Both the position numbers and the translations under genes were made by a program. 41,632 bases of DNA from Escherichia phage K1H: sequence record NC_027994.1. The stretch is one strand, 5' to 3'. Shown piece after piece: positions 3,870 to 36,569 of the stretch. The notes beneath the pieces were generated by a model. It saw only the letters and a list, made by a program, of their open reading frames with translations. It did not search any database and was not told where the DNA came from. How positions within the stretch are numbered: position 1 is the first letter of the stretch; every line of letters begins with the position of its first letter.

Positions 3870-4330
3870 TGATGGGCTTTTTCAAAGTAACTGATGTACC
3901 GTCACGTCGCGTAGTCCAGTACGCCCGCGTGTCTGGCTCTGGTGAGAACGTGGTGTTTATTGATGATGAAAGTGTACTCGGTACACCCGAAGACGATATG
4001 CCGTTTGCAGATAAAACCGGTATTGCGTTACCCGCGGCGGGCATGCTTTATGAAATTCCGTATCTGGCGGATGCAGGTGACGTGTATTTCTCGGTGCAAC
4101 CGAAAGACACCGAGCTGGTCGACGGTAGCGCCACCATCACCGTCGAAGTTAAGGCGGGTAAAGCGCCGTGTGTACTGACCTGGTACAAAGACGGTAAGGA
4201 AGTGGTAAACGCCCCGGAAGAGGCTTTGTCTCTAACGGTTAATGCAGTTGGCGAATACTTTGTTAAAGTTACTGATGCCGATGGTGTAGAGGCCGTAAGC
4301 AAAGCGGCGAAGGTTACTAAGCCAGAATGA
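3869..4330 (+). CDS. Hypothetical structural protein
   Basis: 153-aa ORF with ATGA-type overlap to upstream gene; followed by bidirectional terminator. Confidence 0.5.
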   Translation: MMGFFKVTDVPSRRVVQYARVSGSGENVVFIDDESVLGTPEDDMPFADKTGIALPAAGMLYEIPYLADAGDVYFSVQPKDTELVDGSATITVEVKAGKAPCVLTWYKDGKEVVNAPEEALSLTVNAVGEYFVKVTDADGVEAVSKAAKVTKPE

Positions 4331-4331
4331 T

Positions 4332-4359
4332 AAAAGGCCCCTTTCGGGGCCTTATTTTT
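4332..4359. terminator. Bidirectional intrinsic terminator
   Basis: GGCCCC-TTTC-GGGGCC with T-run on + strand and A-run (T-run on - strand) on the other side. Confidence 0.6.
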
Positions 4360-4361
4360 CA

Positions 4362-4463
4362 TCAAAGTTCACCATTCCCGCTATCTGCGTCCTCGACCCC
4401 GCTAACAGCCCACACAAACAATCCTAAATTAACCAGTAACACAAATGAAATTGCTACCATCAT
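4362..4463 (-). CDS. Small hydrophobic peptide (33 aa, MMVAISFVLLVNLGLFVWAVSGVEDADSGNGEL)
   Basis: Internal ATG of track ORF 4362..4553; GGAGG Shine-Dalgarno 4-5 nt upstream; own promoter (TTGCAG-17-TACTAT) and terminator; single predicted TM helix. Confidence 0.4.
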   Translation of the reverse strand: MMVAISFVLLVNLGLFVWAVSGVEDADSGNGEL

Positions 4464-4489
4464 AACCACCTCCACTATACGTTTACTTA

Positions 4490-4518
4490 ATAGTACCCTA
4501 TTATGTTGGTGTCTGCAA
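4490..4518 (-). promoter_or_regulatory. Sigma70-like promoter, class 1 (TTGCAG-N17-TACTAT) with embedded dyad TAATAG-N4-CTATTA
   Basis: -35 at about 4513-4518 and -10 at about 4490-4495 (minus strand); spacer nearly identical to three other class-1 promoters. Confidence 0.5.
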
Positions 4519-4559: not shown

Positions 4560-4584
4560 ATGTTGGAATAAGCTATTCGAATAG
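4560..4584. repeat. Half-site cluster GAATAA / CTATTC / GAATAG plus ATGTTGGAATAA direct-repeat copy 1
   Basis: ATGTTGGAATAA (4560-4571) recurs at 5343-5354; CTATTCGAATAG is a perfect 12-bp palindrome (4573-4584) abutting a -35 hexamer. Confidence 0.6.
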
Positions 4585-4613
4585 TTGACTTTTCACCAAA
4601 AATGTGCTAAGCT
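4585..4613 (+). promoter_or_regulatory. Sigma70-like promoter (TTGACT-N17-TAAGCT with TGn extended -10)
   Basis: TTGACT 4585-4590; TG at -15/-14; weak -10 TAAGCT 4608-4613. Confidence 0.4.
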
Positions 4614-4792
4614 CCACCTGAGCTTGTGAAGTATGAACAAGCGACCGCGGCGCGGGCAGGTAACGGAGCGGGACGTAAGTCCTGAGTGTAGTTACGCTGA
4701 CGCGTTCGGAAGGGCCATACTCTATTGCTTGTGTAAAAAGTAACTGGTTTACTGAGATTACGCCGTTTCTATGTTTAAATGATAAGGACTAG

Positions 4793-4820
4793 CGCCCCGC
4801 TTTAAGGCGGGGCTTTACTT
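4793..4820 (+). terminator. Intrinsic terminator
   Basis: GC-rich stem CCCCGC/GCGGGG followed by CTTTACTT; the same hairpin sequence recurs inverted at about 34970. Confidence 0.5.
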
Positions 4821-10417: not shown

Positions 10418-10441
10418 AAGGCCCCGTTTGGGGCCTTTTTC
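10418..10441. terminator. Bidirectional intrinsic terminator
   Basis: ACTAAGGCCCC-GTTT-GGGGCCTTTTT between convergent genes; same hairpin with loop inverted at 23140-23163. Confidence 0.65.
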
Positions 10442-10996
10442 TTACAAACCTAATCTTAAAGCAATGCCTATAGCGTTCGATTTAACGTAACCCGGTATGA
10501 TGTAGGTGTCATAATCTTTTACACCATCAATATCGTACAGGTAACCGCGGCTGTCCCCTTCAAACGTATGGCCGTCTCTGTGCAAGCGGACGATTCTCAC
10601 ATCATGCCCCGCGGCAACGATAGGGGCTACTTCGCTGGCGAACCCGCCATCAGACACCACAAAAACTTCGTCGCCGTCGGGCAAGTTTCCGGCAAGATAC
10701 TTACCGAAATAATCATCACCGAATACCGGTTTAATGAATTGCTCGGAAATGGCAATCATGAACTGACGCCGAGACAACCCGTTAAGGAAACCCTCTGGCT
10801 TTTCTTTCCGCGCCCGGTCGTCGTAGCCGTCGAGAAACTCGCGGTAAGCATCCCGGCCTAACGCAGCCATAGCAATATTGAACATCGGATTCTTGAAACT
10901 GGCGACACCCTTCGCAAAGCCCATTTCTACCAGCGCCCTAGCAAGTGTGTCTTTCCCGCAGCCCGCAGGACCATTAAGAATAATTACCTTAGCCAT
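10442..10996 (-). CDS. P-loop nucleotide/nucleoside-monophosphate kinase-like protein
   Basis: 184 aa; Walker A GPAGCGKDT near N-terminus (GKDT variant as in phage dNMP kinases). Confidence 0.55.
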   Translation of the reverse strand: MAKVIILNGPAGCGKDTLARALVEMGFAKGVASFKNPMFNIAMAALGRDAYREFLDGYDDRARKEKPEGFLNGLSRRQFMIAISEQFIKPVFGDDYFGKYLAGNLPDGDEVFVVSDGGFASEVAPIVAAGHDVRIVRLHRDGHTFEGDSRGYLYDIDGVKDYDTYIIPGYVKSNAIGIALRLGL

Positions 10997-11481
10997 TATT
11001 TATCACTCCCATGTGGTTTTAAGTGTGTAGAGTTCCCGTTACAGTCGTATTCAGTAACTGCGTGAGTGGTTATGCCGAGTTCGCGGAAATGCTTTATTAC
11101 CGCTGGAGAGTCGTCGAATGCACACAAGATTCTCTCCGGCCCAATAGCACGCAACACCTCTTCTTTAATTACGATGTCTTTTCTGTTGTCGTGTTTGCTG
11201 CGCATGATTAACTGATAAAATTCGACGCGGTGGCGCTGCAACCACATTCTGGTTTCTTTTTCCGCGTCATCACTACGGCCTGTTAAGATAATAACGGCAT
11301 AGCGACGATTAAGGGCGTTACACAGTTCGATGTTATCTTTAATGGGTGCATCGTCTTTGCACGCCATGTTAAATGGTTTCCACGCCCAGGTTTCGCCGTA
11401 GTTATCTTTCGGCAGCAGGTGTAAACGATGGGTACCATCTGCCAATGTCCCGTCTAAATCGAAAATCACAATATCTTTCAC
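10996..11481 (-). CDS. HAD-superfamily phosphatase (nucleotidase or Pnk-phosphatase-like)
   Basis: 161 aa; N-terminal DxDGT motif (FDLDGTL). Confidence 0.6.
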   Translation of the reverse strand: MKDIVIFDLDGTLADGTHRLHLLPKDNYGETWAWKPFNMACKDDAPIKDNIELCNALNRRYAVIILTGRSDDAEKETRMWLQRHRVEFYQLIMRSKHDNRKDIVIKEEVLRAIGPERILCAFDDSPAVIKHFRELGITTHAVTEYDCNGNSTHLKPHGSDK

Positions 11482-12608
11482 CCAAGCATCTCCGGTGAAA
11501 TAGTTAAACGTGCGACCTCGCCATATTCGGCGCTATAAGTAATTACGTTTGCACTGCGGCCCGACATCCACCCACCGCGGGAGGCATATGCATCTTTAGC
11601 CGCGAGAGTGCGGTGTTGCTCAACAATCATGTTACGGCTTTCTACAATCTTTTGGTGGTGCAGGTGACCCACGTGGGCGTAGCTGTAAACACTCTCGCCG
11701 AACGCTTTGCGGAACTTGGCGATCATAACCGGTTCGATAGCGTCGAATCGTGCTTTATGCCCATGATGGAAGAACAGCGTCGTTTTGCCGTGTTGCACCA
11801 TCTTGTAAACATCCGGCGACGTATCGACGAACACACGCGGCTCATTGTCATACAGCGTACTAAACATCTCAGCTAACCAAATCATTCCGCTTTCGTCGTG
11901 GTTACCTTGCACGATAAGCAAGCGAACATTTTTATGTTTAACGAGAGCCATATCAATGACACGGCGGACCATACGAATCATGTAGCGTACAAGTTTCTGA
12001 TAGCGGGTGTCAGCGTCAAGAACATGACCACTGGCAGGTGTAACGGCGTCCAGACTATCGAAATGCGCAAGGTCGCCCAGCAGATTAATAACTCCTGTTC
12101 CGGTATCCGGTGCTTTCTGGAACGCTGCGTCGAACCAGCGGGAGAACAGGTCTTCCGCAATCTTCATGTCCCAGTCGTCGCCGCTCTCGTCAGCCCAGGC
12201 CAGCATACCGAGATGGAAATCAGACACAGTGTAAAGGTTGAGTAGCTTGTCGTCTCGTTTGGCGCGAACGGCTTTAACAGGTGCAACTGGTGTAATCTCC
12301 GACTTCATGCCTTCGATTACGGCTTTCATCAATTCAACCTGACGTTCGGCATCGGTGTCGGTCTTAACCCATTGCAACTTGGTGTTGCCAAACTCATCCA
12401 CCAGTGATGACGTTCCTTTAATCTTGTAGCCGTCCGGTACAAGGTAACTAACGTCACGCCCGTGGCCTACACCTTTCTTAGCCAGCTTCGCTTTACGGAT
12501 ACGAATAACGCGGTCGGAGATGCCGTATTTACGGGCGATGTCGATATTCTTCATACCGGCGTTCAATTCTTCCTGCAACTGTTCGTCGGTTATTTTCTTC
12601 TGGGCCAT
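11478..12608 (-). CDS. Calcineurin-like metallophosphoesterase with N-terminal HTH domain
   Basis: 376 aa; motifs DFH, GDLAHFD, GNHDE, HHGH, GHLHH; N-terminal approx 50 aa HTH-like; GAGGAAG SD. Confidence 0.65.
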   Translation of the reverse strand: MAQKKITDEQLQEELNAGMKNIDIARKYGISDRVIRIRKAKLAKKGVGHGRDVSYLVPDGYKIKGTSSLVDEFGNTKLQWVKTDTDAERQVELMKAVIEGMKSEITPVAPVKAVRAKRDDKLLNLYTVSDFHLGMLAWADESGDDWDMKIAEDLFSRWFDAAFQKAPDTGTGVINLLGDLAHFDSLDAVTPASGHVLDADTRYQKLVRYMIRMVRRVIDMALVKHKNVRLLIVQGNHDESGMIWLAEMFSTLYDNEPRVFVDTSPDVYKMVQHGKTTLFFHHGHKARFDAIEPVMIAKFRKAFGESVYSYAHVGHLHHQKIVESRNMIVEQHRTLAAKDAYASRGGWMSGRSANVITYSAEYGEVARLTISPEMLG

Positions 12609-12673
12609 GCTTACTTCCTCGTGTTTAGGATTTGTCCTATTTAACCACAGTGCATTCCTTTAAATAAAGGCGA

Positions 12674-13000
12674 CTATTTACTTTCCGCACCTATTGCCCA
12701 TCCGGTCATTACCATTTGCAGACGCGTGGCTGTCAGTAGGCTGTAGAATGCATCTCCGTTTTTCTCTACAGAACGTATTACCGTGTAGGTTACGGCTTGC
12801 GGGGGTAGGCCCGATTTACCAACCTCTACGGCGGCCTCACACTCGCGAACTGTAGAGTCCTTAAATGCCTTTACAATAGTAGGGTCGGCTTTCTCAAGCA
12901 CACCAGAAGTCATAAGAACAGATTCACTAAATACCTGTTCGCACGGGGCCCCAAAAGTAGCAAAAGACATAAGCCCCAGAGCTAATACTAATTTACGCAT
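12674..13000 (-). CDS. Small secreted/periplasmic protein (signal peptide)
   Basis: 108 aa; N-terminal MRKLVLALGLMSFATFGAP signal sequence; GAGGGA SD; class-1 promoter directly upstream. Confidence 0.5.
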   Translation of the reverse strand: MRKLVLALGLMSFATFGAPCEQVFSESVLMTSGVLEKADPTIVKAFKDSTVRECEAAVEVGKSGLPPQAVTYTVIRSVEKNGDAFYSLLTATRLQMVMTGWAIGAESK

Positions 13001-13028
13001 AATTGTTCCCTCAGTAAGTTACAGGTGA

Positions 13029-13057
13029 ATAGTACCCTATTATATTGGGGTGTGCAA
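13029..13057 (-). promoter_or_regulatory. Sigma70-like promoter, class 1 (TTGCAC-N17-TACTAT) with dyad GAATAG-TACC-CTATTA
   Basis: -35 at 13052-13057, -10 at 13029-13034 on minus strand; 34-bp segment nearly identical to 35234-35268. Confidence 0.55.
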
Positions 13058-13164
13058 GTAGTGTGCTAGAATAAGTTTGCGCCTAGTGTCGCACACGAAA
13101 AGCGGGTGGTTCCCGTCTGGCGCATTAACCTTAACCCGTAACCTCTTAACCAAAGGATTAAAGA

Positions 13165-23139: not shown

Positions 23140-23163
23140 AAGGCCCCAAACGGGGCCTTTTCT
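23140..23163. terminator. Bidirectional intrinsic terminator
   Basis: GGCCCC-AAAC-GGGGCC plus TTTTCTC between convergent tailspike and leftward operon. Confidence 0.65.
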
Positions 23164-23367
23164 CTACCCTTCAGATAACTTCTCCAGTATGAACGCCAGT
23201 TGTGCATTAGCGGCGTCTCTTTGCTGCCGTAGTCGTAGAATCTCTTCTTCTAGTTCCTTGATACGTTTTATTTCTCGCTTTAACTGCATAGCAAGAAGTT
23301 GCTCGCGGGCATTAAGAGCAGATTTTACCAATTCGTTGCAGGCGTCAATATCAAACTCATTATTCAT
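23164..23367 (-). CDS. Hypothetical coiled-coil protein
   Basis: 67 aa, last gene of leftward operon. Confidence 0.45.
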   Translation of the reverse strand: MNNEFDIDACNELVKSALNAREQLLAMQLKREIKRIKELEEEILRLRQQRDAANAQLAFILEKLSEG

Positions 23368-23549
23368 TTCTTACCTTCGCTTTTCTTGAAACTGCGCTTT
23401 ATATCCGGCAGCGTGTAGCACCGTGATTTTTCGTATTTACCGTCCGAGCTTACCAAAACAAAGCTGTTGCCGTCTTTTGATATGTACTCGATGGCGAAAA
23501 TATTAAATGAATGTACGCTGTATATTTCATCGCCAACATTAAGTTTCAT
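23364..23549 (-). CDS. Hypothetical protein
   Basis: 61 aa, overlaps neighbours by 4 nt. Confidence 0.45.
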   Translation of the reverse strand: MKLNVGDEIYSVHSFNIFAIEYISKDGNSFVLVSSDGKYEKSRCYTLPDIKRSFKKSEGKK

Positions 23550-24979
23550 TTCTTACCTCGTCTCTTCATGTAATTAAGCAACTCTTCCTGTACAGATTTC
23601 TTCTCGTCGGTTCGCGCGGCAACAACTTCGTCCAGCGTGTCTTTAGCAACGATGTGGTACAGGAACACCGGCCTCTCGTGTCCTGCCTGTTTCTGGCGGA
23701 CCGGGCCTATTCGCTCGACAACCTGCAAATAGTGTTCAAGATTCCAGCCTTGCGAGATGAACGCCAGATGGTGTCCGCCGTCCTGTAAATTCAAACCATG
23801 ACCGGCTGACGCAGGGTGGACGCACAAAATCTCGATTTCGCCGCGGTTCCATGCTTCCATCTGCTTATTACCCTTAGCACCTTTCGCGAATGCCTGCGCC
23901 TGCGGGAAACGTTTCAGGATACGCTCCAGTTCGTGCTTGAACTGATAGGCTACCAGTAGCGGAGCACCCTGTAACTCCTCAACAATTGACTCCAGCGCAT
24001 CCAGTTTCGTGTCGTGCACTTTCTCCCAGTCTTTGGTTGCTTCTCCGTCTGGCCCTGATACATACACAGCACCAGAAGCAATCTGCAAACACTTTGACGT
24101 CTTTGCCGCGGCGTTAGCCGCTTCAACTTCTCCGCTTTCCAGTTCCGCGAATAACTTTTCCTCCATATCGATGTACGCCTGACGCGCCTTCTTCGGCAGG
24201 TCGATTTCAACCGGTACAATAATCGGCGCTTCGCAACCAAACCACTCGGCGGCGTCAATCGTGAGACTAATGTCTTTCATCTTCTGATGAATCTCATTAT
24301 CCGCACCCGGTCGTGCGTGATACTCCCGCGCCATCGCGGATTTCCCTTTCTGTACCGAGTTAAACCAGCGGTCTGTGAATGCCGTGTACGAAGAACCAAG
24401 GCAACCAAGGCGCTCGCCAGCGTCGATAAACCAGTTCTGCCCCCACAAGTCCTTGAGGCCGTTCGGCGACGGTGTGCCTGTCAGGTTAATGAAACGCTTA
24501 ACCTTTCCGAACGCCACTTTGCTTAGCGCCTTAGCCCGTTTGCTTCCTCCAGAACGGCTACGGAAAGATTTCAGCTTCGTGCTCTCATCAGCAACGATAA
24601 CCGTAAAAGGCCAGTCGTCTTTGCCGTAGTAGTCAATCAGCCACTCGATAACTTCGTAGTTTGTGCACACCACGTTAGCATCTGACTCCAGCGCCGCGAT
24701 ACGGCGCTTCTCTGAACCGGTTGCGTCTACGACACTCAGACAGGGGAAGTTCCAACGTGCCTGTTCCGCGGGCCACGTACCTGACGCAACACGTAAAGGA
24801 GCCAGAATTAACACTCGGTCGTCGTCATTAAGTTGCCCATTACGGAACAGCCGATTGAGAACCCACAACGTTGACCCCGACTTACCGCTGCCCATGCTCG
24901 CCCAGATATTGCAGCGATGGTGCCGCAGCATGAACGAAGTCATGAGCTTCTGGTATTCGCGCCTTTGAAACTTACTCAT
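23546..24979 (-). CDS. SNF2/DEAD-like superfamily II helicase
   Basis: 477 aa; Walker A-like SMGSGKS, DExx box VADEST, C-terminal helicase motifs. Confidence 0.75.
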   Translation of the reverse strand: MSKFQRREYQKLMTSFMLRHHRCNIWASMGSGKSGSTLWVLNRLFRNGQLNDDDRVLILAPLRVASGTWPAEQARWNFPCLSVVDATGSEKRRIAALESDANVVCTNYEVIEWLIDYYGKDDWPFTVIVADESTKLKSFRSRSGGSKRAKALSKVAFGKVKRFINLTGTPSPNGLKDLWGQNWFIDAGERLGCLGSSYTAFTDRWFNSVQKGKSAMAREYHARPGADNEIHQKMKDISLTIDAAEWFGCEAPIIVPVEIDLPKKARQAYIDMEEKLFAELESGEVEAANAAAKTSKCLQIASGAVYVSGPDGEATKDWEKVHDTKLDALESIVEELQGAPLLVAYQFKHELERILKRFPQAQAFAKGAKGNKQMEAWNRGEIEILCVHPASAGHGLNLQDGGHHLAFISQGWNLEHYLQVVERIGPVRQKQAGHERPVFLYHIVAKDTLDEVVAARTDEKKSVQEELLNYMKRRGKK

Positions 24980-25796
24980 TTACCGCCCCCATAAACGCCT
25001 TTATAAATTCGGCGGCTACTTGCGGGACGATGGCATTGCCGTAACCGCGCAATCGTCCCACTCTGGCGGGTATCCCATTAGCCAGCGGGAATGCGCCGGG
25101 TTCAACCGGCCGGAACTTTCCATCACGGCATCCGAGCCAGTCAGCATCTGACCAGAAGCCGTGGTGCGGGTTGGTTGACTCGCTTTCAATCCCTGCTCTG
25201 TTGAGTAGTCCAGCCTGTCGAATGTTCTGTCCCTCCCGTCCGTGCGAATCACTGTCTCTCCGCTCCCTCTGAAGTCGTTCGCTGTCGGTGTAGGCCAGTT
25301 CGTGCGCGCCAAAGAAGAGTCGTTCTCTTTTGTGCGGTGCGCCGACGCTACAAGCTGGGAGTACAGCAAACCCGACGGCGTAGTCTTCTCCTTCCAGGTG
25401 AGCTTGTAAATCGCACATCCACGATTTTGCAATTGCTGCCGCAACCTGCTCCCCAAAGATGACTGGAGGGCGGCACTCGCTGATGAGGTCGAGGAAGACC
25501 GGCGCGAGGTGTCTCGGGTCGAACTGTCCGAGTTGCTTTCCCGCCGCGCTAAACGGTTGGCAAGGCGGGCTTCCCGTCCAGAGAGGCGCATCTTCCGGAA
25601 CTCCCGCAAGTCTGAGCGCGAGAGGCCAGCCGCCGATACCCGCGAAAAAATGACACTGGGTGAACCCGTCAAGGTCTTCTGGCTTAACTTCGGTAATGCT
25701 TCTTTCATCTACAACTCCAAAAGGTATGTGACCCTGTTTTATCAACTCACGCAGCCACGCGGCTGCGCCTTTATCCCATTCATTGTAATAGTTCAT
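24972..25796 (-). CDS. DNA (cytosine-5)-methyltransferase (orphan)
   Basis: 274 aa; motif I FAGIGG and motif [13 protein letters not shown] (catalytic Pro-Cys); no adjacent restriction endonuclease. Confidence 0.7.
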
Positions 25797-25984
25797 TTCG
25801 CCACCAGAACTAACTCTTTACGCCCGAACGCCGTAACGTTACCGGTTACATCTTCGATAACCAGTTTACCGTTCGACTCGACGAACACCGTATCAACGGC
25901 AACAGGTTGACGTGTCTTAACGTTGAAAATCATGTCACCCGGTACGATGTCACGTGCTGGTTTGCGGTCATATTCGTGTTTCAT
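25793..25984 (-). CDS. Hypothetical protein
   Basis: 63 aa; first gene downstream of class-2 promoter at about 26018-26046. Confidence 0.45.
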   Translation of the reverse strand: MKHEYDRKPARDIVPGDMIFNVKTRQPVAVDTVFVESNGKLVIEDVTGNVTAFGRKELVLVAK

Positions 25985-26014
25985 TTCTCAATTCCTTATA
26001 TTGTTGGTGTAGGA

Positions 26015-26314
26015 CTAACTATAATAGCTAGCTATTAGGTCGTCAACCTGTTTAAACGAACCAACGACAAAAACATTCGCACCACGTTTACGCATCCGCT
26101 CATGTTCCCGTAGCTGGTGCGGGTCTGGCTTCGTGTTCTCGTCTTTCTTAACCTCGACGAACCAGACTATGCCGCCGGGGAGAATTACCAGCAGGTCTGG
26201 GGCGCCGGAACGCCCCTCGTAGGAGAGTTTGCGAACGAGGCCGCCAAGGGCCTCGAATCGGTCTTTTGCGTATTTCTGTACGCGGCCCTCTTTAGTCATG
26301 AGCGTAGATCCCAA
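26015..26314 (-). CDS. VRR-NUC domain nuclease (putative)
   Basis: PD-(D/E)XK-like ...PDLLVILPGG...VEVKK; likely true start is the ATG 5 codons in (ATGA overlap with upstream small ORF). Confidence 0.55.
   Translation of the reverse strand: MGSTLMTKEGRVQKYAKDRFEALGGLVRKLSYEGRSGAPDLLVILPGGIVWFVEVKKDENTKPDPHQLREHERMRKRGANVFVVGSFKQVDDLIASYYS
26018..26046 (-). promoter_or_regulatory. Sigma70-like promoter, class 2 (TTGACG-N17-TATAGT) with perfect 16-bp palindrome TAATAGCTAGCTATTA
   Basis: Minus-strand -35 at about 26041-26046 and -10 at about 26018-26023; overlaps 3' end of VRR-NUC gene. Confidence 0.55.
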
Positions 26315-26447
26315 GTAATGAAAGCCCCGCCTAGAACGGCGACACCGGCAAACTTAAAGAACAGGCCATAACAGAACATCGCGGCTATTCCTGCACCGAG
26401 TAGCAGTGCGAGCATGGTTACTATCACCCGAAATACGAACATTGTCA
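26296..26447 (-). CDS. Small membrane protein (about 49 aa, two hydrophobic segments)
   Basis: ATG preceded by GGGAGGGG SD; stop overlaps VRR-NUC ATG; coordinates approximate (+/-2). Confidence 0.35.
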
Positions 26448-26651
26448 TAATACGCACCCCTCCCGTTTGGTATGCTCAATTCCGCAGCGCGGGCAGATTC
26501 GACAGTCTTCTTCATAAAACCAGTAAATTTTCATTCCAGCACCCACAGATAAATTGCGATGAACATGCCCAATATGGCAACCATCATGACGTATTGACCC
26601 TCGTGACAGTAGACACCGGCAGCAAATCCCGCCAGTACCGCGATAATCAGT

Positions 26652-28832
26652 TTACTTGGCATAACGCTTCATCTCCGCGCCTTCTGCTACAAGAGGGAAC
26701 CCCTCGGCCCACTCTGGTAATTCGCACATCAATCGTTCCAGTTCTGCGACATTGTATTCTGGTAAATCTGGTGTCTCGCAGATAATCTCATCGTGAACAT
26801 GAAGCACAATCGGGTAGCCGTTTGCTTCGACGTTCAGCAGTGCATTAGCCAACAAATCACGGCACAGCGCCTGAGTGCAGTTTTCCACGAGTTTACCGGA
26901 ATATGTGTACTGGAAGCCCCACTGACGGGTTAACTGGTTTTCGCCCTGGTACTTGATGCGCACGTTGGTAGACACCTTCCCGTCTTCGTCTGTCTCTTTC
27001 GACACGCTTAGCCCAACACCCGGATAAGACATAACGCGGCCCGACGGCAACGTCATCCGCAACCACCAACCGGCGACTTTGTTGCCGTTGTTGTCCGTTT
27101 CTACGTTGCGCGAAAACTTAACTCCCCGCGGCCCTGCGGTGAACTCTTTGCCCGGATTGCGGATAGCTGCCATAGCTGCGTCTTCAATATCCCGCCAGAA
27201 AGCTACTGTTTCCGGGTGTGACTCACGCCACATACGCTTGATAGCGTCGCAGGTACGCCACACTTTCTTATCAAGAATATAAGATGGTCGGTCATCATTT
27301 TCACCTGGACGTGGTGGTCGCTTGGCTTCCTGAATACGCGCCCACTCATATCCACGTGCGGTAGCAGCCCAGATGTGGTCGGGGAAAGTCCCGTCCATTG
27401 TTTTTGTCATATCAACAAGGTCAAGGCCGAGGTTCTTGGCGAACTGTACGAATGCGCCGACACCCCCCGCGTAGCCAAGTCCAAGTTCGCATGCCTTACC
27501 AATCTGGCGTAAGTCTTTACGTTCTTTCTTAATGTAATCCGGCTCCATGCCGAACATCTTGCCTGCGGTTACGCAGTAAATATCCAGCCCGGCACGGAAC
27601 GTATCAAGCGCGGTTTCTTCGCCAGCCAGCCACGCCAAACCGCGGCCTTCAACGTTCGAGTAGTCGGCGACGACAAACTTATGTCCGGCTTCCGGGATAA
27701 TGCAGCTGCGAACCGTAGATGCCGTTAGCTTGGCTACATCAAAACGGCGATGTGCTCGGCCCTTAAGTAATGCTGAAATACCTTTATCCAGTTCATCATC
27801 GTGATAGTACCCACGCGCCAGGTTCTGCGGCTGGAAGCCTTTACCCGCAAATCGTAACGTACGTTTAGCTCCACCATACTGGATGCAACCGCGACGGCGG
27901 TCGTCAGACGAGCGGCCTAACAGCAGCGGGTTATATTTCGTTGACGCAGTGGATGCCGCCCCGAGGCGCATTTCTATAATCGTGCGGGCGTCGTCCGGTA
28001 AATCATCGTCAGCAAGCAGGTCGTTAAGCGTTGACTTCTGCGCGTTGTGGATGCGATGCGCAGGCGCCAGTTCACGCAGAATCGGCAGGAAGTCCTTACC
28101 TGTAAGCGAGCCGCCGTATTTACGTTGGGCTTCTTCCTGTAACTGTGCCTTGTGTTTCTCCACAGCTTCAATTGCGGCTTCCGCCAGCGCAACGTCGACC
28201 TTAAACCCGCGGTCGTTAATTAACTGGTCCAGTTCCAGTACACGGTCTTCGAACTCGGAGTTACCCCAACGCGGCAACTTATGGAACACTTCACGCATCG
28301 CGGTGATGTCGCTAACGGCGTACTTGATGAACAGCGCCCACTCATCCGGGTGCGTTTCAGCAGTGTAGCGGCGAATTTTGTAGTTCTTCGGCGTCGGTTT
28401 AGAGAAACGCTGAATAAGCGCTTTGCCTCGTTTGTCTTTCGCGTTGTCTGCAGACACGCCAAGCACTTCGCACAATGCGTCGAGTGAACCCGGCAGCGCG
28501 TGACGAAACGCCCAAATCATCGTATCAATGGTGTTGCTTACGGGAATATCAAAACCCCAGCAGTGCTTCATGATGAGTCTGTCGAACATTGAGCCGTTGT
28601 GCCACACCATCTTAATACGGCTGTTTGGTTTCACCAGACGGCGTAACGCGCGGTGCAAATCACCCGGCATGTCGCTGCCGTTGGTGCAATCCCATACCTG
28701 CACAGGCTCGTCGTCAAAAGCATATGTGCAGATTAGAACTTCGGTGGTTGGATGTTCGGCGTAAGCGTAGGAGCCGACTTTCTTCAAATCGGCTTCGGAG
28801 AATGTTTCAAAGTCTAAGAACAGGTAACTCAT
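26652..28832 (-). CDS. DNA polymerase I-like (family A) with 3'-5' exonuclease domain
   Basis: 726 aa; N-terminal DFETFSE exonuclease motif; size and position in replication module. Confidence 0.85.
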   Translation of the reverse strand: MSYLFLDFETFSEADLKKVGSYAYAEHPTTEVLICTYAFDDEPVQVWDCTNGSDMPGDLHRALRRLVKPNSRIKMVWHNGSMFDRLIMKHCWGFDIPVSNTIDTMIWAFRHALPGSLDALCEVLGVSADNAKDKRGKALIQRFSKPTPKNYKIRRYTAETHPDEWALFIKYAVSDITAMREVFHKLPRWGNSEFEDRVLELDQLINDRGFKVDVALAEAAIEAVEKHKAQLQEEAQRKYGGSLTGKDFLPILRELAPAHRIHNAQKSTLNDLLADDDLPDDARTIIEMRLGAASTASTKYNPLLLGRSSDDRRRGCIQYGGAKRTLRFAGKGFQPQNLARGYYHDDELDKGISALLKGRAHRRFDVAKLTASTVRSCIIPEAGHKFVVADYSNVEGRGLAWLAGEETALDTFRAGLDIYCVTAGKMFGMEPDYIKKERKDLRQIGKACELGLGYAGGVGAFVQFAKNLGLDLVDMTKTMDGTFPDHIWAATARGYEWARIQEAKRPPRPGENDDRPSYILDKKVWRTCDAIKRMWRESHPETVAFWRDIEDAAMAAIRNPGKEFTAGPRGVKFSRNVETDNNGNKVAGWWLRMTLPSGRVMSYPGVGLSVSKETDEDGKVSTNVRIKYQGENQLTRQWGFQYTYSGKLVENCTQALCRDLLANALLNVEANGYPIVLHVHDEIICETPDLPEYNVAELERLMCELPEWAEGFPLVAEGAEMKRYAK

Positions 28833-28845
28833 TATTTTTGACCCT

Positions 28846-28872
28846 TAGTAAAAAGGCCCAATGAAGGGCCTT
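28846..28872 (-). terminator. Intrinsic terminator/attenuator between SSB-like gene and DNA polymerase
   Basis: GGCCC-N6-GGGCC followed by TTTTT on minus strand. Confidence 0.45.
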
Positions 28873-28891
28873 AGTTAAATTGATTCAGATA

Positions 28892-29518
28892 TTAGCGACG
28901 ACGACGCTCGCGGCGCGGTGCTTCATCTTCTTCGTCGTCTTCCAGGTCATTTACGCTGGCAGCGACTTTAGAACCGCCAAACGCTTTGCCTTCGCCAATG
29001 TATTTAATCGCCAGCAGGTTAACGCCGAGGACTTTATATTTCTGACTGAACCAGATTTCAACGCTTACGTTAGCGACGCAGCCGCTGTAAACCTGTTCAC
29101 CTTCAATCTGTTCGCCGTCTACATTGAAGTCCTGTTCTACCTGAGTCTCGCCTTTTTTAGAGGTTACAATCAGTGGCTGTTTCTGTGCCTTCGCCTTGAA
29201 GTAGAAGCCTTCCGGGAAGTCTTCAAACGGATTGTCGCGCTCGGCAATGTCTTTAATCGCACATTTATCCATGTGCTTACCTTCGCCGTAGTTGGACTTC
29301 ATCCACTTCTCAGCGGCAGCTGCGCCCAACGCTTCTTCAACCACAGCGTAAACGGTGTCGTAGAGCGCGTCGATTTGTGCGTGGTCAGACGGCAGGATGA
29401 TAGTCGCGCTGTACTGGCCTTTAGTGATTGAGCCATCATCGTTTTCACGGTCTTTTTCGCGTTCGAATACGTTAACCCATGCAGTGTTTACTTTACGCAG
29501 ATTCAGTTTAATACCCAT
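28892..29518 (-). CDS. Single-stranded DNA-binding protein-like (DUF2815-like, tentative)
   Basis: 208 aa; acidic C-terminal tail (DLEDDEEDE); position between nuclease and polymerase. Confidence 0.45.
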   Translation of the reverse strand: MGIKLNLRKVNTAWVNVFEREKDRENDDGSITKGQYSATIILPSDHAQIDALYDTVYAVVEEALGAAAAEKWMKSNYGEGKHMDKCAIKDIAERDNPFEDFPEGFYFKAKAQKQPLIVTSKKGETQVEQDFNVDGEQIEGEQVYSGCVANVSVEIWFSQKYKVLGVNLLAIKYIGEGKAFGGSKVAASVNDLEDDEEDEAPRRERRRR

Positions 29519-29571
29519 CGTGATTTCTCGCTTTTCAGTTTACTCCGGGAACTGCCCGGCCAGTGATTAGA

Positions 29572-29600
29572 ACTATAATAGCTAACTATTCAGGTGTCAA
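29572..29600 (-). promoter_or_regulatory. Sigma70-like promoter, class 2 (TTGACA-N17-TATAGT) with dyad TAATAG-CTAA-CTATTC
   Basis: Minus-strand -35 at 29595-29600, -10 at 29572-29577. Confidence 0.55.
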
Positions 29601-29604
29601 CACT

Positions 29605-30870
29605 TTATTCCGAATCTTCTTCACTAACCTGATTCCACTCAGGACGTTTGTCGTCTGCCGTTGCGACACATGGTGCGCCTGGCTTACGGGTAATAAACGG
29701 CTCAAGCGCTGCCATCTCATCCGCCGAAAGAACTTTTGCTGCCTCCGTAGGGGTCATCAATACCTCTTTTTTGAGAATGTCGCCGTGTGACACTTCAATC
29801 GCATCGGCATCTTTCCACGCACGATTACCCTGGCGGCCTTCTACCAGTTTGTACCCTGGCACTTTCTTACCGGAATGCAATGCGGCGGACATCGCTTTCT
29901 CAACCTTGTCGATGTGCTGGCGCAACAGCGGCAACTTCTCATACTCAACTACGAGTTGCTCCGTCGTCAGTTCCAGCACAAAGTCGTCTTCAAGTTCTTC
30001 CGCCAGTACAGAATTAACCGTCTTTGTACGCGCGGCACACTGTTCAGAGAACCGGCACCACTGGCAACCATCTACTGACGGCTTAAAGTCTGACGCTTTC
30101 AGGTTCTTCTTACCGCGGAAATATGCATCAAGTGCTAACAGTGCTCGTTTTTGTGCGAACTTAGCGAACAGTTCCAGGCCTTCAACCGAGATATCCCACT
30201 CCGACGCACCCCCAGCGTACGGCTGGAAGATGACCAGACGAACAGTTGTTATGTTATAACGTCTCTTGAGTCGGCGATAGACACCGAGCGCGTAAAGCAT
30301 AAGCTGCTTGTTTTCTTTCGCTTCGACGCGATGCCGTCCTGTTTTCAGGTCACCAATAATGAGCATGTGCTCGTCGGTGTTTGCCAGTTCCTGTACGGCA
30401 ACAAGGTCAGCAGTTCCGAACGTTTCAACGCCTTCGTAGCCTGGGTGCAACACCTCAGTAAGATTGACGCGCATTTCCAGCTTAGCGTAAGTCGCTACAT
30501 CAATAATCGCTTTGCAGTAGTCGGTGTACTTGCGCACCTGCTCAATCATGTCCGTCGTAATCAGTACCGCGCCTTTCATTGGGCTGATTAGCGCCTTAAT
30601 CTGGCCTTTACCCTCATCCAGCACATAAGCGCCAACTTCACGCTCTAATGGCAGAGCAGTGCCTTTGATGTACTGGTTAAGGTGCATCTCCGCTATGGTG
30701 TGGCATGCAGTCCCTGTAACGGCGGCTTTACCAGACGTGTTGGGAATATCTTTCTCACAGGCCAGTGACGCACTGCACGCCAGCCACTTTTTAGCGCCAG
30801 ACGGCGACAGTAAGGCGTGCACATCGTTATTGCCGCCGCGTTCCTTTAAAATCATACCCTGCTCTCCCAC
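29605..30870 (-). CDS. PD-(D/E)XK family nuclease (DUF2800-like, Cas4/RecB-type with C-terminal Cys cluster)
   Basis: 421 aa; N-terminal LSPSGAKKWLAC..., C-terminal CQWCRFSEQC cluster. Confidence 0.6.
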   Translation of the reverse strand: MGEQGMILKERGGNNDVHALLSPSGAKKWLACSASLACEKDIPNTSGKAAVTGTACHTIAEMHLNQYIKGTALPLEREVGAYVLDEGKGQIKALISPMKGAVLITTDMIEQVRKYTDYCKAIIDVATYAKLEMRVNLTEVLHPGYEGVETFGTADLVAVQELANTDEHMLIIGDLKTGRHRVEAKENKQLMLYALGVYRRLKRRYNITTVRLVIFQPYAGGASEWDISVEGLELFAKFAQKRALLALDAYFRGKKNLKASDFKPSVDGCQWCRFSEQCAARTKTVNSVLAEELEDDFVLELTTEQLVVEYEKLPLLRQHIDKVEKAMSAALHSGKKVPGYKLVEGRQGNRAWKDADAIEVSHGDILKKEVLMTPTEAAKVLSADEMAALEPFITRKPGAPCVATADDKRPEWNQVSEEDSE

Positions 30871-31124
30871 TGGTCAATTAAATGTCGTGTCTTATGGTCG
30901 CAGTGCATAGCCCAGCCATACATCGACTCGAAGACGTAAAAGTCCGGTTTGGCGAAAGTCGTGCGCTTAATATGTGACACGTGGCGGCCTATGTCTTTAG
31001 GCCGTGGCACTTTGCCTAAGTACGCCATATCTTCCATCTGGTGCGAGCCAGACGGCGCACGTAACAGCCATAGCGCCTCTGTGCTATCCCTCCTGTCTAC
31101 GGCGCGGTAGAGTTGGTAAATCAT
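30852..31124 (-). CDS. Hypothetical protein
   Basis: 90 aa; GAGGG SD; hairpin upstream. Confidence 0.45.
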   Translation of the reverse strand: MIYQLYRAVDRRDSTEALWLLRAPSGSHQMEDMAYLGKVPRPKDIGRHVSHIKRTTFAKPDFYVFESMYGWAMHCDHKTRHLIDQWESRV

Positions 31125-31167
31125 AATCCCGACCCTCAGTTAAAGCGGCCCGAAGGCCGCGGGATAA

Positions 31168-31686
31168 TTATTCTTCTTCGAAATACTTGTTCTTGATTGC
31201 CGTCAGGCGTTCCAGGTATTCGGCAAGGTCTTCGTCTTTAATCGCGGCAATCTTCATCTTCTTACCGGTGAACTCTTCCAGCAGTTCATCGGAATCATCG
31301 CACGCGGCGTCGCTCGGACCTTCGTTAATTGCATCGTCGATAGCCTGAATCTGGTCACGCAGAGACTGGTAATCTACTTCTTCCTTCTCTTCCGGTTCTG
31401 GCGTCGGTTCCTCTACTTTAGATTTACGCGGCTTGCGTTTCGGCTTCTCTTCTTCTGCTGGTTTAGTGTCGACGATGTCTTCACCTTCAACCGGGATTTC
31501 TTTCGCCTTCTCGACTTCTTCAAGTGCTTTAGCCAGTTCTTTTTTAACTGTCTCTACCCCAGTTACCGCGACGTCAACAGTCAATTCACCTACAGATTTG
31601 CTAGTCGGTTGTTTCACACTGTTTGCAGCAATCAGTTCGTGGGCGACTACGAAACGTTCCAGTAATACCAAGAATTTCTCTAACAT
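31168..31686 (-). CDS. Highly acidic early protein (function unknown)
   Basis: 172 aa, very rich in Glu/Asp with short lysine-rich patch; first gene of leftward operon from class-2 promoter; GAGGAG SD. Confidence 0.5.
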   Translation of the reverse strand: MLEKFLVLLERFVVAHELIAANSVKQPTSKSVGELTVDVAVTGVETVKKELAKALEEVEKAKEIPVEGEDIVDTKPAEEEKPKRKPRKSKVEEPTPEPEEKEEVDYQSLRDQIQAIDDAINEGPSDAACDDSDELLEEFTGKKMKIAAIKDEDLAEYLERLTAIKNKYFEEE

Positions 31687-31717
31687 TTGTTTCTCTCCTC
31701 TCGTTTGGTATGTGTTA

Positions 31718-31747
31718 ACTATAATAGCGAACTATTCACGTTGTCAA
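31718..31747 (-). promoter_or_regulatory. Sigma70-like promoter, class 2 (TTGACA-N18-TATAGT) with dyad TAATAG-CGAA-CTATTC
   Basis: Minus-strand -35 at 31742-31747, -10 at 31718-31723. Confidence 0.55.
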
Positions 31748-31751
31748 TGGG

Positions 31752-31782
31752 CTTTTCTAAAATAATTAATATGGTACTATTC
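31752..31782 (+). promoter_or_regulatory. Weak plus-strand promoter (-10 TACTAT, poor -35) with dyad TAATAT-GGTA-CTATTC
   Basis: TACTAT at 31775-31780; overlaps the divergent class-2 promoter; AAGGAG SD before ATG 31812. Confidence 0.4.
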
Positions 31783-31811
31783 ACATATCAACTGACTAAG
31801 GAGTAATTGAC

Positions 31812-32027
31812 ATGCAACCATCTGAACTAGGCATCCGTGTAGAACAGCGCCGTAAAGAACTCGGCATTTCCCAACGCCGTCTGGCTGTCCTGGCCGGTGT
31901 TTCCCAGGGCGCGATTAACCAGCTGGCACTCGGTGTAACTAAGGACGTCCGCCCAGCGACGCTGTTTAAACTGGCGGAAGTGCTAGAGGTAGACGCCAAG
32001 TGGCTGGCGTTCGGTGAAGGGGCTTAA
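31812..32027 (+). CDS. XRE-family (Cro/CI-type) HTH transcriptional regulator
   Basis: 71 aa; RRKELGISQRRLAVLAGVSQGAINQ... typical HTH_XRE helix-turn-helix. Confidence 0.7.
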   Translation: MQPSELGIRVEQRRKELGISQRRLAVLAGVSQGAINQLALGVTKDVRPATLFKLAEVLEVDAKWLAFGEGA

Positions 32028-32042
32028 CGCCCCTTTCTTTTT
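32018..32042 (+). terminator. Intrinsic terminator after HTH gene
   Basis: GGGGC-TTAAC-GCCCC plus TTTCTTTTT; stop codon lies in loop. Confidence 0.55.
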
Positions 32043-32044
32043 GC

Positions 32045-34312
32045 CTATTCTAAATCCTCCTCTGTCACTGTTAACAGTTCATTCGGTTCGTATATCGTCT
32101 TCGGAATCTTGTTATCAGTTATCCGGGTGTTCAGCCTGTAACGGCCAGGGATTATCTGATTGTTTTCGTCAGTCCCCGGAACAAGATACCCAGCCTCAAC
32201 CATTTTCTTAATCTTCCCGCGTTCTATGGCTTCTTTGGAGTTAAACGCCTTTGCATTGGGGTCAGACTGTGCGAGCTTATTAGCGGCGGCGACTGTGATG
32301 CCTTCGTTGCCGTTGTAGGTTCCTTCCGCCAGTTCAAACGCCGCCAGTATCGTGGCTTCTGAACTGTTGACGGCGTTCTCTATGGTTTTACGTACGTTTT
32401 CTTTACCTTCTTTCGTCAACCCTTCTTCCCGCTCTTTCTCCTCGTCAGTCTTGAACGGCTCGAAACCCCACGGCATTAACACAAGTGCCTTATGCGGCTC
32501 CGGCAGGTCGAGGTTTACGATTGTGCCGTATTCCTCCGTGCTACCGAGGAACTCAACCGCACGGTACTCTTTCGGCGGCGGCGCTTCACGGAACTGTACA
32601 GACTCCAGCACCATACCAACCGTCTTCTGTTGAGGCCCGTGCTTGAATTTCGAGTGGTATACATTTATCTGGCGGTCGGTAGCTCGTTCGATTGTCAGTT
32701 CCACGTCGACGCCAGCATACAGCGCCCCACTGCCACGGGCTTTCTTTCCGCCCTTCGGCGTATGGTGGACAACGCCTACCGCAGCTTTAGTCGCGTCACG
32801 TACTTCTTTCAGGATGGCGATAACCTTACCCATGCCGATTGCCGTTGATGAACTGTTCTCGTCGAACTTATCAATCGTCAGGGCTAGCGTCTGGTTGAGG
32901 GTGTCGAACGCAACCATGCCGATGGGTTCGTCACCCGCAGTTTCACGCATCAACTTAATCAGGCTTTTCAGTTTTCCGACTTCGCCCATGTCGATGACAT
33001 GTACATAATCTTTACCTTCCTCGCTATACTTAGCTGCGAGCGCATCGATACGGGTGCGTGTAGCTGCGCCGCCCTCACCGTCGATATAAAAATGGTGGCA
33101 ACGCTGCGTATCTGCCCCCGCAAACCGGTATCCGGCGGCGCTCAGGTACATCATCCCCAGCGTATAGAACGATTTGTACGTTCCGGATTCCCCGACAATA
33201 TCCCAGATACAATCTGACGGCATGTACCCTTCAACGACGAAATCCGCCTTTACCGGTTCCGGTAACTCGTCATCCTCTGAGTCCTCGTCATCTTCCAGGT
33301 CGTCGAGGCTGCATGAAACAGATTCACGTGCACCCCATCCGATGGCCTCTGCGACTTCACTGAACGGCAGCCCCGTCGCATCGCACGCATACTTCCACAC
33401 CTCTTTCGGTGACATGCCTTCGGTCGCCGTAATGTCAGTGTCGTGAATCATGGTTACGTTCGGCGCCTCATATCCCTCTCGCGGGAAGCACAGCAGGAAG
33501 TCATCCGGGCGCGGCGTCGGGTCGCTGTAGTTTTCTGCGTGTTCTGGCGTAGCTGGCATCTTAAGGCCTCGTGGCGTCATGATACCGCCATACTCGAACG
33601 CCAGTGCCTCGAACGCGTCGGTAAACGCGGTGCGCAGTTCTTCCGGTATCTGGTAATCCGATGCGCTGCTAACGTCAACGGCAGGGATGCCTTCCAGTAA
33701 CTCGTCCGGGTCAATCAGGTCGTTGCGGCGTGACCAGATAACGGTAGAGCCAACCGGAGGCAGGTACATCGGTTGCGAAAGAGTGAACCCGCTGCGGTCA
33801 GCACCCATGCTTTTGAAGAAGTGTTCCAGCAATCCATGGCGAACACGGATGATGTCACCACCTTCGACCGGACGGGCCAGCGGCATGACGACGCGAAAGC
33901 GCGGGGACTCGTCGGTATGTGATGCCGTGGTATAGATACACATGCCCCGGCGGCTGCGTTTAACTAAGCGCACCGCTTCCTGATACTCTTCTGGTGTTGC
34001 GCTGTCGAAGTCCAGATACGCCAGCGACGATTTGCTTACAGACGCGTCACAGCGATAGAAAAAGCCTTTACGCGCTTGCTTAAAGTCGCCGGTTTCCGGG
34101 TCTTTTACAGTGCTGTGCGTCGAGTCGCACGCGGCGGTGATATAACCGGGCGCGGTCTTCGGGTTAATTCCGTCACGGACAGCATCGAGTGGCTGGATTA
34201 ACTCTTTCAGGTCGTCCAGTGTTGCCGTGTGTGTGGTTCTGACGTTTATATCCTTTTTCTCTGCCCGCGCGTTGCGACGTGACCACGAGTAGGATAAAAT
34301 TACATCGGACAT
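32045..34312 (-). CDS. DNA primase/helicase-like replication protein
   Basis: 755 aa; central RecA/P-loop-like segment GESGTYKS and hhhhD motif VAFDTL; assignment by size and context. Confidence 0.65.
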   Translation of the reverse strand: MSDVILSYSWSRRNARAEKKDINVRTTHTATLDDLKELIQPLDAVRDGINPKTAPGYITAACDSTHSTVKDPETGDFKQARKGFFYRCDASVSKSSLAYLDFDSATPEEYQEAVRLVKRSRRGMCIYTTASHTDESPRFRVVMPLARPVEGGDIIRVRHGLLEHFFKSMGADRSGFTLSQPMYLPPVGSTVIWSRRNDLIDPDELLEGIPAVDVSSASDYQIPEELRTAFTDAFEALAFEYGGIMTPRGLKMPATPEHAENYSDPTPRPDDFLLCFPREGYEAPNVTMIHDTDITATEGMSPKEVWKYACDATGLPFSEVAEAIGWGARESVSCSLDDLEDDEDSEDDELPEPVKADFVVEGYMPSDCIWDIVGESGTYKSFYTLGMMYLSAAGYRFAGADTQRCHHFYIDGEGGAATRTRIDALAAKYSEEGKDYVHVIDMGEVGKLKSLIKLMRETAGDEPIGMVAFDTLNQTLALTIDKFDENSSSTAIGMGKVIAILKEVRDATKAAVGVVHHTPKGGKKARGSGALYAGVDVELTIERATDRQINVYHSKFKHGPQQKTVGMVLESVQFREAPPPKEYRAVEFLGSTEEYGTIVNLDLPEPHKALVLMPWGFEPFKTDEEKEREEGLTKEGKENVRKTIENAVNSSEATILAAFELAEGTYNGNEGITVAAANKLAQSDPNAKAFNSKEAIERGKIKKMVEAGYLVPGTDENNQIIPGRYRLNTRITDNKIPKTIYEPNELLTVTEEDLE

Positions 34313-34370
34313 GTTGTATTTCCTTCAGCAAGTAATTTGGCCTCGGCGTTCACCGCGTCGGGGCTTTCTT

Positions 34371-34691
34371 TTATTCCAGGTCGTGGGAGATATTACCCTC
34401 GGGCACCAACACTTTTCCAATACTTCTCGCTTTCTCTGTAATAGGCGTCGCTCTTGTTGCCCGATAAAACTTTCCTTTATTAAGAATCTCACCATGTCGC
34501 TCGAGCACATCTAAAGCATGTTTGATCGGGTTTACACCGTAATTATCCAACCGGTATCTCCGAAGCCCGTCTACCGTAAAAGCGCCGTTCGCTTCGGTCA
34601 GTCTGCGTGCACACATTAATATGTGTTTCTGGAATTTAGTTAGCATCTTTAACGTTCTCCTTAATCCACGCCTCCACAGTAGCGCGGTCAA
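34371..34691 (-). CDS. Hypothetical protein
   Basis: 106-aa track ORF overlapping upstream gene by 56 nt; true start probably an internal ATG. Confidence 0.4.
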   Translation of the reverse strand: MTALLWRRGLRRTLKMLTKFQKHILMCARRLTEANGAFTVDGLRRYRLDNYGVNPIKHALDVLERHGEILNKGKFYRATRATPITEKARSIGKVLVPEGNISHDLE

Positions 34692-34815
34692 AGGTACCTG
34701 GCTGACGGTAGCCGTTAATAACCCGGCAACACTCAGGGAACTTACCCGACCGCAGCCAGCGATTAAGCGTCATAGGAGAAACTCCGATTAAGTCTGCTAC
34801 TTCTTTCTGTGTCAT
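34636..34815 (-). CDS. AlpA/excisionase-family HTH DNA-binding protein
   Basis: 59 aa from ATG 34815 (AGAGGG SD); MTQKEVADLIGVSPMTLNRWLRSGKFP... matches AlpA-like pattern. Confidence 0.55.
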   Translation of the reverse strand: MTQKEVADLIGVSPMTLNRWLRSGKFPECCRVINGYRQPGTFDRATVEAWIKENVKDAN

Positions 34816-34844
34816 TTTACACGCCCTCTTTATCAAGTGAAACA

Positions 34845-34873: not shown

Positions 34874-34877
34874 CCTA

Positions 34878-35267: not shown

Positions 35268-35299
35268 ACTTATCGGAACGAGACAGAGGAGTGAGGGTT

Positions 35300-36562: not shown

Positions 36563-36569
36563 AATTTAC

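Follow-up and report, generated by a model that had tools for sequence, protein, structure and literature searches.

A palindrome shared by sigma-70-type promoters of Escherichia phage K1H is a candidate operator for a Cro-like repressor

The genome of Escherichia phage K1H (NC_027994.1; 41,632 bp, the whole of which is referred to here as the window) is a complete, circularly permuted Kagunavirus genome of the subfamily Guernseyvirinae, in which a first-pass annotation, made from the sequence alone, had picked out a family of four similar modules and described them as a phage-specific promoter/operator cassette. We find that these four copies are part of a larger set of seven exact and two to three weaker sites, arranged in two promoter geometries, that have in common the 14-bp palindrome AATAG-N4-CTATT. 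On the basis of sequence comparison and protein modelling, we consider it probable that the promoters marked in this way are early and middle promoters of the sigma-70 type, and that they are shut down by one phage repressor, a small Cro-like protein, acting through the shared palindrome.

The four original copies, termed class-1 promoters here, carry the motif TTGCA(C/G)-N17-TACTAT, which has exactly four matches in the window, as against a mean of 0.04 in dinucleotide-preserving shuffles (n=100), none of which reached four. They lie at 4490-4518 (minus), 13029-13057 (minus), 35237-35265 (plus) and 36570-36598 (plus), precisely where they had been placed by the first-pass annotation. Every copy is intergenic, fits the sigma-70 frame (-35 TTGnnn, -10 TAnnnT, spacing 17 +/- 1 bp) and leads, 26-37 nt past the -10, to the start of a gene preceded by a Shine-Dalgarno sequence. 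The 13029 promoter consists of a -35 TTGCAC at 13052-13057 and a -10 TACTAT at 13029-13034, the latter overlapped by the dyad AATAGGGTACTATT at 13028-13041, and has an orthologous site in phages K1G and G AB-2017 and in Jerseyvirus. The copy at 4490 (TTGCAG-N17-TACTAT; dyad 4489-4502) is located between a Hoc-like head gene and a spanin gene, that at 35237 (dyad 35253-35266) belongs to the rightward small-gene (early-right) operon, and that at 36570 (dyad 36586-36599) lies within the rightward operon. The spacers of all four had been described as near-identical; this is true of the 4490, 13029 and 35237 copies, which share 15 of 17 bases, but not of the 36570 copy, the spacer of which is unlike the other three (10-11 of 17). 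A 34-bp inverted match between two of the copies was recovered at 13025-13058 and 35236-35269, with 94% complementarity, and the 51 bp around the 35237 promoter match 206 phage records from Escherichia and Salmonella. In the 25 bp on either side of the class-1 core, identity falls to 7-15 of 25, which is background, so that similarity is confined to the module itself.

The palindrome is not a feature of class 1 only. In exact form it occurs at seven places in the genome, where 0.01 would be expected. It had been noted before as GAATAG-N4-CTATTC, and a dyad is indeed present, but the outer G and C are variable and the conserved core is the shorter AATAG-N4-CTATT. In class-1 promoters the right half-site falls within the -10 and the dyad spans about -19 to -6, whereas in a second group, class 2, the dyad lies six bases further upstream, at about -25 to -12, inside the spacer. 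The three class-2 promoters are all on the minus strand: TTGACG-N17-TATAGT at 26018-26046 (dyad 26023-26036), which would drive the gene for a 63 amino acid (aa) protein and methylase and helicase genes; TTGACA-N17-TATAGT at 29572-29600 (dyad 29577-29590), predicted to drive a gp2.5-like single-stranded DNA-binding (ssDNA-binding) gene and the DNA polymerase gene; and TTGACA-N18-TATAGT at 31718-31747 (dyad 31723-31736), placed to drive a 172-aa gene and a DUF2800 nuclease gene, and standing back-to-back with the promoter of the gene encoding the Cro-like protein. They agree with the sigma-70 consensus at 10-11 of 12 positions and are thus stronger than class 1, the hexamers of which agree with the full consensus at 7 of 12, and their Shine-Dalgarno-bearing gene starts lie 28-48 nt past the -10. 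All seven exact dyads are situated in, or at the edge of, intergenic DNA, each facing a gene with a Shine-Dalgarno sequence, and each keeps to one of two set distances from sigma-70 hexamers spaced 17-18 bp apart. The earlier description as a promoter/operator cassette is borne out by this arrangement, together with a palindrome that is conserved independently of the hexamers, as the comparison with relatives makes clear.

For this comparison we used 50 viral-contig loci obtained in a search anchored on the small helix-turn-helix (HTH) protein. In each of the 28 Kagunavirus and 12 Jerseyvirus-type loci, exact dyads stood at orthologous positions, while none was seen in six distinct Cornellvirus-type genomes or six more distant loci, a single one-mismatch match being seen in one Cornellvirus-type locus (L046). 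Conservation at orthologous positions in relatives, which had been named as a check on the cassette, therefore holds for Kagunavirus and Jerseyvirus; the accompanying idea that the cassette has been copied around the genome is not supported, since sites orthologous in two genera are old rather than recent copies. Promoters were chosen for alignment by their downstream gene rather than by the motif, and promoter classes were set by explicit rules. In these gene-anchored alignments the -35 and -10 are kept in Kagunavirus, Jerseyvirus and Cornellvirus, but both half-sites only in the first two; the Cornellvirus promoters have retained their hexamers and lost the left half-site. The four bases between the -35 and the dyad vary between genera, as does the central N4, which in class 1 is always nnTA, because TA begins the -10, and in class 2 takes 21 forms with no fixed base, the half-sites being constant in both classes. 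That the half-sites are fixed while N4 and spacers drift points to a constraint other than polymerase, and is characteristic of sites recognized by a dimeric DNA-binding protein. In Cornellvirus no alternative repeated palindrome emerged from searches for exact 5-N(0-8)-5 palindromes or for repeat families, and no shared site was apparent when the promoters were compared by eye. The sequence TTAAC-N6-GTTAA, the sole yield of a one-mismatch dyad search in that genus, lies mostly in coding DNA and was set aside as noise.

One-mismatch dyads that are kept in relatives are found at 31768, 39029 and 4580. The first corresponds to a degenerate copy of the class-1 module previously reported at 31752-31782. 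A variant of the -10 and dyad, AATATGGTACTATT, does lie there (31768-31781, plus), with one mismatch, a -10 TACTAT at 31775-31780 and a TGn at 31772-31774 that gives an extended -10, but there is no TTGCAC -35. This site is upstream of the gene for the Cro-like protein, and the supposed degenerate copy is thus the promoter of the likely regulator gene. It is unvarying across the Kagunavirus loci, where one base change yields the TGn extended -10 in place of a -35, whereas the Jerseyvirus form is TTGCGT-N17-TACTAT with a weaker left half-site. The second site, ACTAGTTGACTATT, surrounds the -35 of a promoter-like TTGACT-N17-TATATT (39034-39062) in the stretch 39029-39062 (plus), just past the endolysin terminator, and is conserved in both genera, its Jerseyvirus form being AATAGTTGACTAGT. 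The third, a one-mismatch dyad at 4580-4593, belongs to a degenerate class-1-like site, TAGCAC-N17-AACTAT, at 4571-4609 (minus), 91 bp upstream of the 4490 promoter. At 4571-4586 there is also a perfect 16-bp palindrome, AACTATTCGAATAGTT, which corresponds to the operator half-sites turned outwards; the 4571-4609 site is kept in relatives, and this palindrome in Kagunavirus and Jerseyvirus, in both cases including genomes in which the gene slot behind the 4490 promoter is empty. A plus-strand GTTACA-17-TATATT at 13018-13046, which lies across the 13028 dyad with class-2 geometry and is directed towards the tail operon, is without conservation in K1G and is probably fortuitous.

The candidate repressor is a 71-aa HTH_3 (Xre-family) protein encoded at 31812-32027 (plus), the sole plus-strand gene within the minus-strand replication block. 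It is recognized by the Pfam HTH_3 model with 47.2 bits (cut-off 23; E 2.2e-12), and its top sequence match is 434 Cro (E 1.9e-7). An AlphaFold2 model (five helices, pLDDT 84) gave 2cro, 1pra and 3cro as best PDB matches, so that 434 Cro (2cro) comes first by fold as well, with TM scores of 0.73-0.79 and 42% identity to 2cro. The protein is present in every dyad-bearing locus. On its upstream side the gene has the perfect dyad at 31723 and the weakened dyad at 31768, 45 bp apart, and it is closed by a terminator-like hairpin at 32016-32036 (plus). In Cornellvirus, as seen in Salmonella virus VSiA (L006, 34210-37005), the genes for the Cro-like protein and the helicase-primase are on the same strand and form one rightward unit, an arrangement by which the layout in Kagunavirus and Jerseyvirus looks like a primase-segment inversion that left the small gene facing it. 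From its fold, its distribution and the sites beside its gene, we lean towards the view that this protein is the binder of the dyad.

Several observations weigh against this assignment, or against the repressor model as a whole. The Kagunavirus and Jerseyvirus Cro-like proteins share only about 51% identity and differ in their recognition helices (SQGAINQ and SQSLITH, respectively), although their half-sites are the same, and the Cornellvirus helix, TQSAISH, is no more divergent although that genus is without the dyad; protein-site covariation therefore gives the Cro-like assignment no support. An HTH_17 protein tracks the dyad across genera as well as the Cro-like protein does, two loci excepted, and a host factor may bind the palindrome instead. 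With their modest agreement with consensus, the class-1 promoters are perhaps weak unaided. In the literature we found no transcription start, transcript or binding study for the Guernseyvirinae.

One alternative is that the palindrome is the operator of another binder, be it the HTH_17 protein, some other small phage protein or a common enterobacterial host regulator, which we regard as unlikely. The HTH_17 protein (excisionase/BldC-like; 34636-34845, minus) is encoded by the first gene of the leftward operon, and its distribution matches that of the dyad, with about 70% identity between Kagunavirus and Jerseyvirus and absence from Cornellvirus, while the recognition helix of the Cro-like protein differs between the two dyad-bearing genera. 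The site of the Cro-like gene itself is the weakest, and this could equally mean escape from control. However, in loci L028 and L034 the HTH_17 gene is replaced by unrelated open reading frames (ORFs), and three and six exact dyads, respectively, are retained. Moreover, proteins of the excisionase/BldC type line up head to tail on direct repeats and do not bind 14-bp palindromes, and we know of no E. coli regulator with an AATAG-N4-CTATT consensus. Just one further protein is confined to the two genera, the 63-aa product of 25793-25984 (minus), which shows 95-97% identity between Kagunavirus and Jerseyvirus, far above the genome average, and is absent from Cornellvirus; its model is a small SH3/Tudor-like barrel that has neither a significant PDB match nor a DNA-binding relative, and it is an unlikely binder. 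When the remaining small ORFs were scanned with Pfam and NCBIfam for further DNA-binding proteins, the only find was a sub-threshold NinH-like protein, one that Cornellvirus also has. As to what stands in place of the HTH_17 gene in the two Kagunavirus contigs (L028 3624-4209; L034 12559-13144), it is a 47-aa Cys-rich, zinc-ribbon-like ORF followed by a 149-aa ORF.

Other explanations dispense with a repressor altogether. Ordinary host-type promoters might be alike through copying or gene conversion, the palindrome being a by-product of the -10 with no binding protein; in support of this, three copies share 15 of 17 spacer bases, similarity ends sharply at the module edges, and the class-1 right half-site belongs to the -10. 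We nevertheless think this improbable, as the class-2 palindrome sits at a different offset where neither half-site is needed by polymerase, the palindrome is kept across two genera while spacer bases change, and there are seven exact copies against the 0.01 expected. It is less credible still that the modules are mainly homology patches for cargo-swapping recombination, with transcription a secondary role. Conserved modules do flank variable cargo at two slots, but most copies head conserved core genes (for the ssDNA-binding protein, polymerase and nuclease), their orientation towards genes is perfect and 30 bp is short for homologous exchange; a role as recombination patches could in any case coexist with the promoter role rather than displace it. 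Least plausible of all is that an RNA polymerase encoded or modified by the phage reads the motif as its promoter, the label that one of two earlier papers gave it. Seven 'phage promoters' with the consensus tgAATAGTa-ccTATTat-T were predicted by PHIRE in phage fBC-Eco01 and attributed to a phage RNA polymerase (PMC9825357, Table S2), and seven PHIRE 20-mers were given for VB_EcoS-Golestan (PMC7203180, Table S4); the moderate match of the class-1 hexamers to sigma-70 could be read in the same sense. PHIRE, however, finds repeated 20-mers only and says nothing on which polymerase uses them, and the motif is always inside a sigma-70-type -35/-10 frame with 17-18-bp spacing. Furthermore, no RNA polymerase gene was found among the ORFs of the window or the annotations of K1G (whole genome) and G AB-2017 (most of the genome), and the large ORFs of the window are all assigned (terminase, portal, tail, tailspike, helicases, DNA polymerase and primase). 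The first description of the cassette as phage-specific should not be taken to imply a phage RNA polymerase, none being encoded.

The two PHIRE lists contain the same motif at the same genomic positions, examples being TGAATAGTACCCTATTATAT, TAATAGGATACTATTCACTT and the variant TAATATGGTACTATTCACAT, but the papers present 20-mers only, without remarking on the palindrome or the -35/-10 frame, distinguishing the two geometries or proposing a regulator. Beyond these lists we found no transcript or regulator data in the literature on the subfamily. The motif is thus already published, and its reading as an operator appears to be new.

Our current working model for repression by the Cro-like protein is as follows. 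At the start of infection, with operators free, the host sigma-70 polymerase would fire all the operator-bearing promoters. As the Cro-like protein accumulates, its dimer would occupy each palindrome and block polymerase at both geometries; repression is the only effect open to a protein bound at -25 to -6. The early and middle genes would then be turned down together with the accessory, moron-like genes that lie behind two of the promoters. The weaker operator of the Cro-like gene would be filled last, so that its own promoter would be the last to be repressed. Two promoters lacking the dyad, TTGACA-16-TAAAAT at 34878-34905 (plus) and TTGTCA-16-TATTGT at 34857-34884 (minus), which heads the primase operon, would escape this control. 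The motif with its statistics, geometry and conservation, and the fold of the protein, are findings of the analysis; promoter activity, the identity of the binder, repression on binding, and timing are what we infer in this scheme.

The accessory genes concerned lie behind the 4490 and 13029 promoters. In the window, the cargo of the 4490 promoter is a 33-aa hydrophobic peptide, MMVAISFVLLVNLGLFVWAVSGVEDADSGNGEL (4362-4463, minus), closed by a two-way terminator at 4334-4353, and it is found in about 6 of the 119 records having this slot. The promoter and dyad are kept, and the cargo changes between phages: a 33-aa and 114-aa pair in Golestan and phiEc4, a 67-aa ORF in Bas73, endonuclease VII in SETP13 and an adenine methyltransferase in dunkel, with an empty slot in K1G and G AB-2017. 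The 13029 promoter feeds the operon 10442-13000 (minus), which comprises genes for a 108-aa signal-peptide protein, a metallophosphoesterase, a PNKP-type phosphatase and a P-loop protein (nucleic-acid end-healing genes), and here too the first gene varies, the 108-aa protein being replaced by an Imm-like protein in K1G and Jerseyvirus. The unit 4329-4518 has the promoter-gene-terminator structure of a moron and is variably present between conserved genes, but it would not be expressed independently of the phage programme; with a phage-wide operator at its promoter and a virulent phage as its bearer, it is moron-like rather than a classical moron. The earlier proposal that moron-like genes are tied to the early programme is thus upheld as regards the variable cargo behind both promoters, their early expression being a prediction of the model. 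More generally, and more tentatively than for the repressor itself, we suggest that Kagunavirus and Jerseyvirus might make the early-to-late switch with a single 434-Cro-like repressor acting at eight to ten identical operators in two promoter designs, and that the operator-bearing promoters might serve as fixed sockets for swapped accessory genes (methylase, endonuclease VII, Imm-like protein, small membrane peptides), which on acquisition would inherit the phage's timing.

The setting of these sites is a genome collinear in gene order with that of K1G and, over a 4-kb test region, 97.7% identical to that of Escherichia phage G AB-2017; Kagunavirus relatives are virulent siphoviruses. From the ORF map and annotated relatives, the terminase, portal, head and tail genes are on the plus strand, the replication genes occupy 23164-34845 (minus), small genes and lysis genes form a rightward block at 35291-38915 (plus), and the short operon at 10442-13000 (minus) is an insertion that separates the major tail gene from the tail-assembly genes. 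Intergenic DNA makes up 6.4% of the genome. Neither a cI-type repressor (with a C-terminal oligomerisation/cleavage domain) nor an integrase was found among the window ORFs and annotated relatives, the sole Xre protein being the 71-aa one, which consists of the bare domain, and Rfam and tRNA scans of the whole window yielded no RNA genes. Strong hairpin terminators at 2767-2782, 4334-4353, 4794-4813, 10418-10437 and 23140-23159 divide the structural gene block, and no late promoter motif was found; late transcription must restart or read through. Between the HTH_17 gene and the 35237 promoter, about 390 bp (34846-35236) are without an ORF and contain the near-consensus dyad-free promoter at 34878-34905 (plus) and strong hairpins at 34969-34996, a 96% inverted copy of 4790-4817, and at about 35158-35180; this region, which has no Rfam match, could be a leader or a non-coding RNA. 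The 5' untranslated region of the ssDNA-binding gene (about 29531-29560, minus) has, directly after the class-2 promoter, the hairpin-containing AATCACTGGCCGGGCAGTTCCCGGAGTAAAC, which is nearly invariant in Kagunavirus, Jerseyvirus and Cornellvirus and may serve as an operator for translation or as a site of RNA processing. Finally, three perfect head-to-tail 24-bp units are present at 35712-35785, inside the 70-aa ORF 35697-35909.

Members of Kagunavirus and Jerseyvirus find wide use in phage therapy and food safety. If the repressor model is correct, it supplies a simple wiring diagram for them, with one small repressor, one 14-bp site and about ten promoters, corrects the published label of 'phage RNA polymerase promoters' and explains how accessory genes stay under phage control; those who engineer these phages could also borrow the compact promoter-operator module, together with its repressor, as a switch. 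General understanding would be unchanged, this being the familiar Cro-type logic in a new lineage, operating genome-wide in virulent phages.

The nearest known system is that of phage 434. Its Cro binds 14-bp palindromic operators through four to five contacted bases at each end, leaving the centre uncontacted. Like the window protein, for which the fold is that of the model, 434 Cro is a small single-domain HTH protein of 71 aa. The OR and OL operators of 434, and likewise of lambda and P22, are 14-bp palindromes covering the core of sigma-70 promoters, where a bound protein blocks polymerase, and the 434-like layout of a pair of sites between divergent promoters beside the regulator's own gene recurs in the window. 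The half-sites differ, AATAG in the window and ACAA in 434, and the 7-10 operator-bearing promoters of the window are scattered genome-wide, in contrast to two clusters in 434, lambda and P22. Unlike those phages, moreover, the virulent phage studied here has no cI partner, integrase or three-site switch, and binding of the dyad by its Cro-like protein is putative. A second comparison is with the morons of lambdoid phages, which, like the 4329-4518 unit, consist of a small gene with its own promoter and terminator. That unit is moron-like also in lying on the opposite strand between head and lysis genes, and in being absent or having other cargo in close relatives; but its bearer is not temperate, so that there is no prophage expression, and the 4490 promoter is not private to its cargo, being a conserved slot promoter that is apparently wired into the operator network of the phage. 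The C proteins of restriction-modification systems, finally, are small Xre dimers of similar fold (C.AhdI and C.BclI are among the fold matches of the 71-aa protein), and may be likened to the window system in that they bind palindromes (C-boxes) overlapping promoter elements and regulate their own gene. Their action, however, is confined to one or two sites within their own operon and usually begins with activation, whereas the sites of the window overlap the -10 or spacer of many promoters, in a position suited to repression only.

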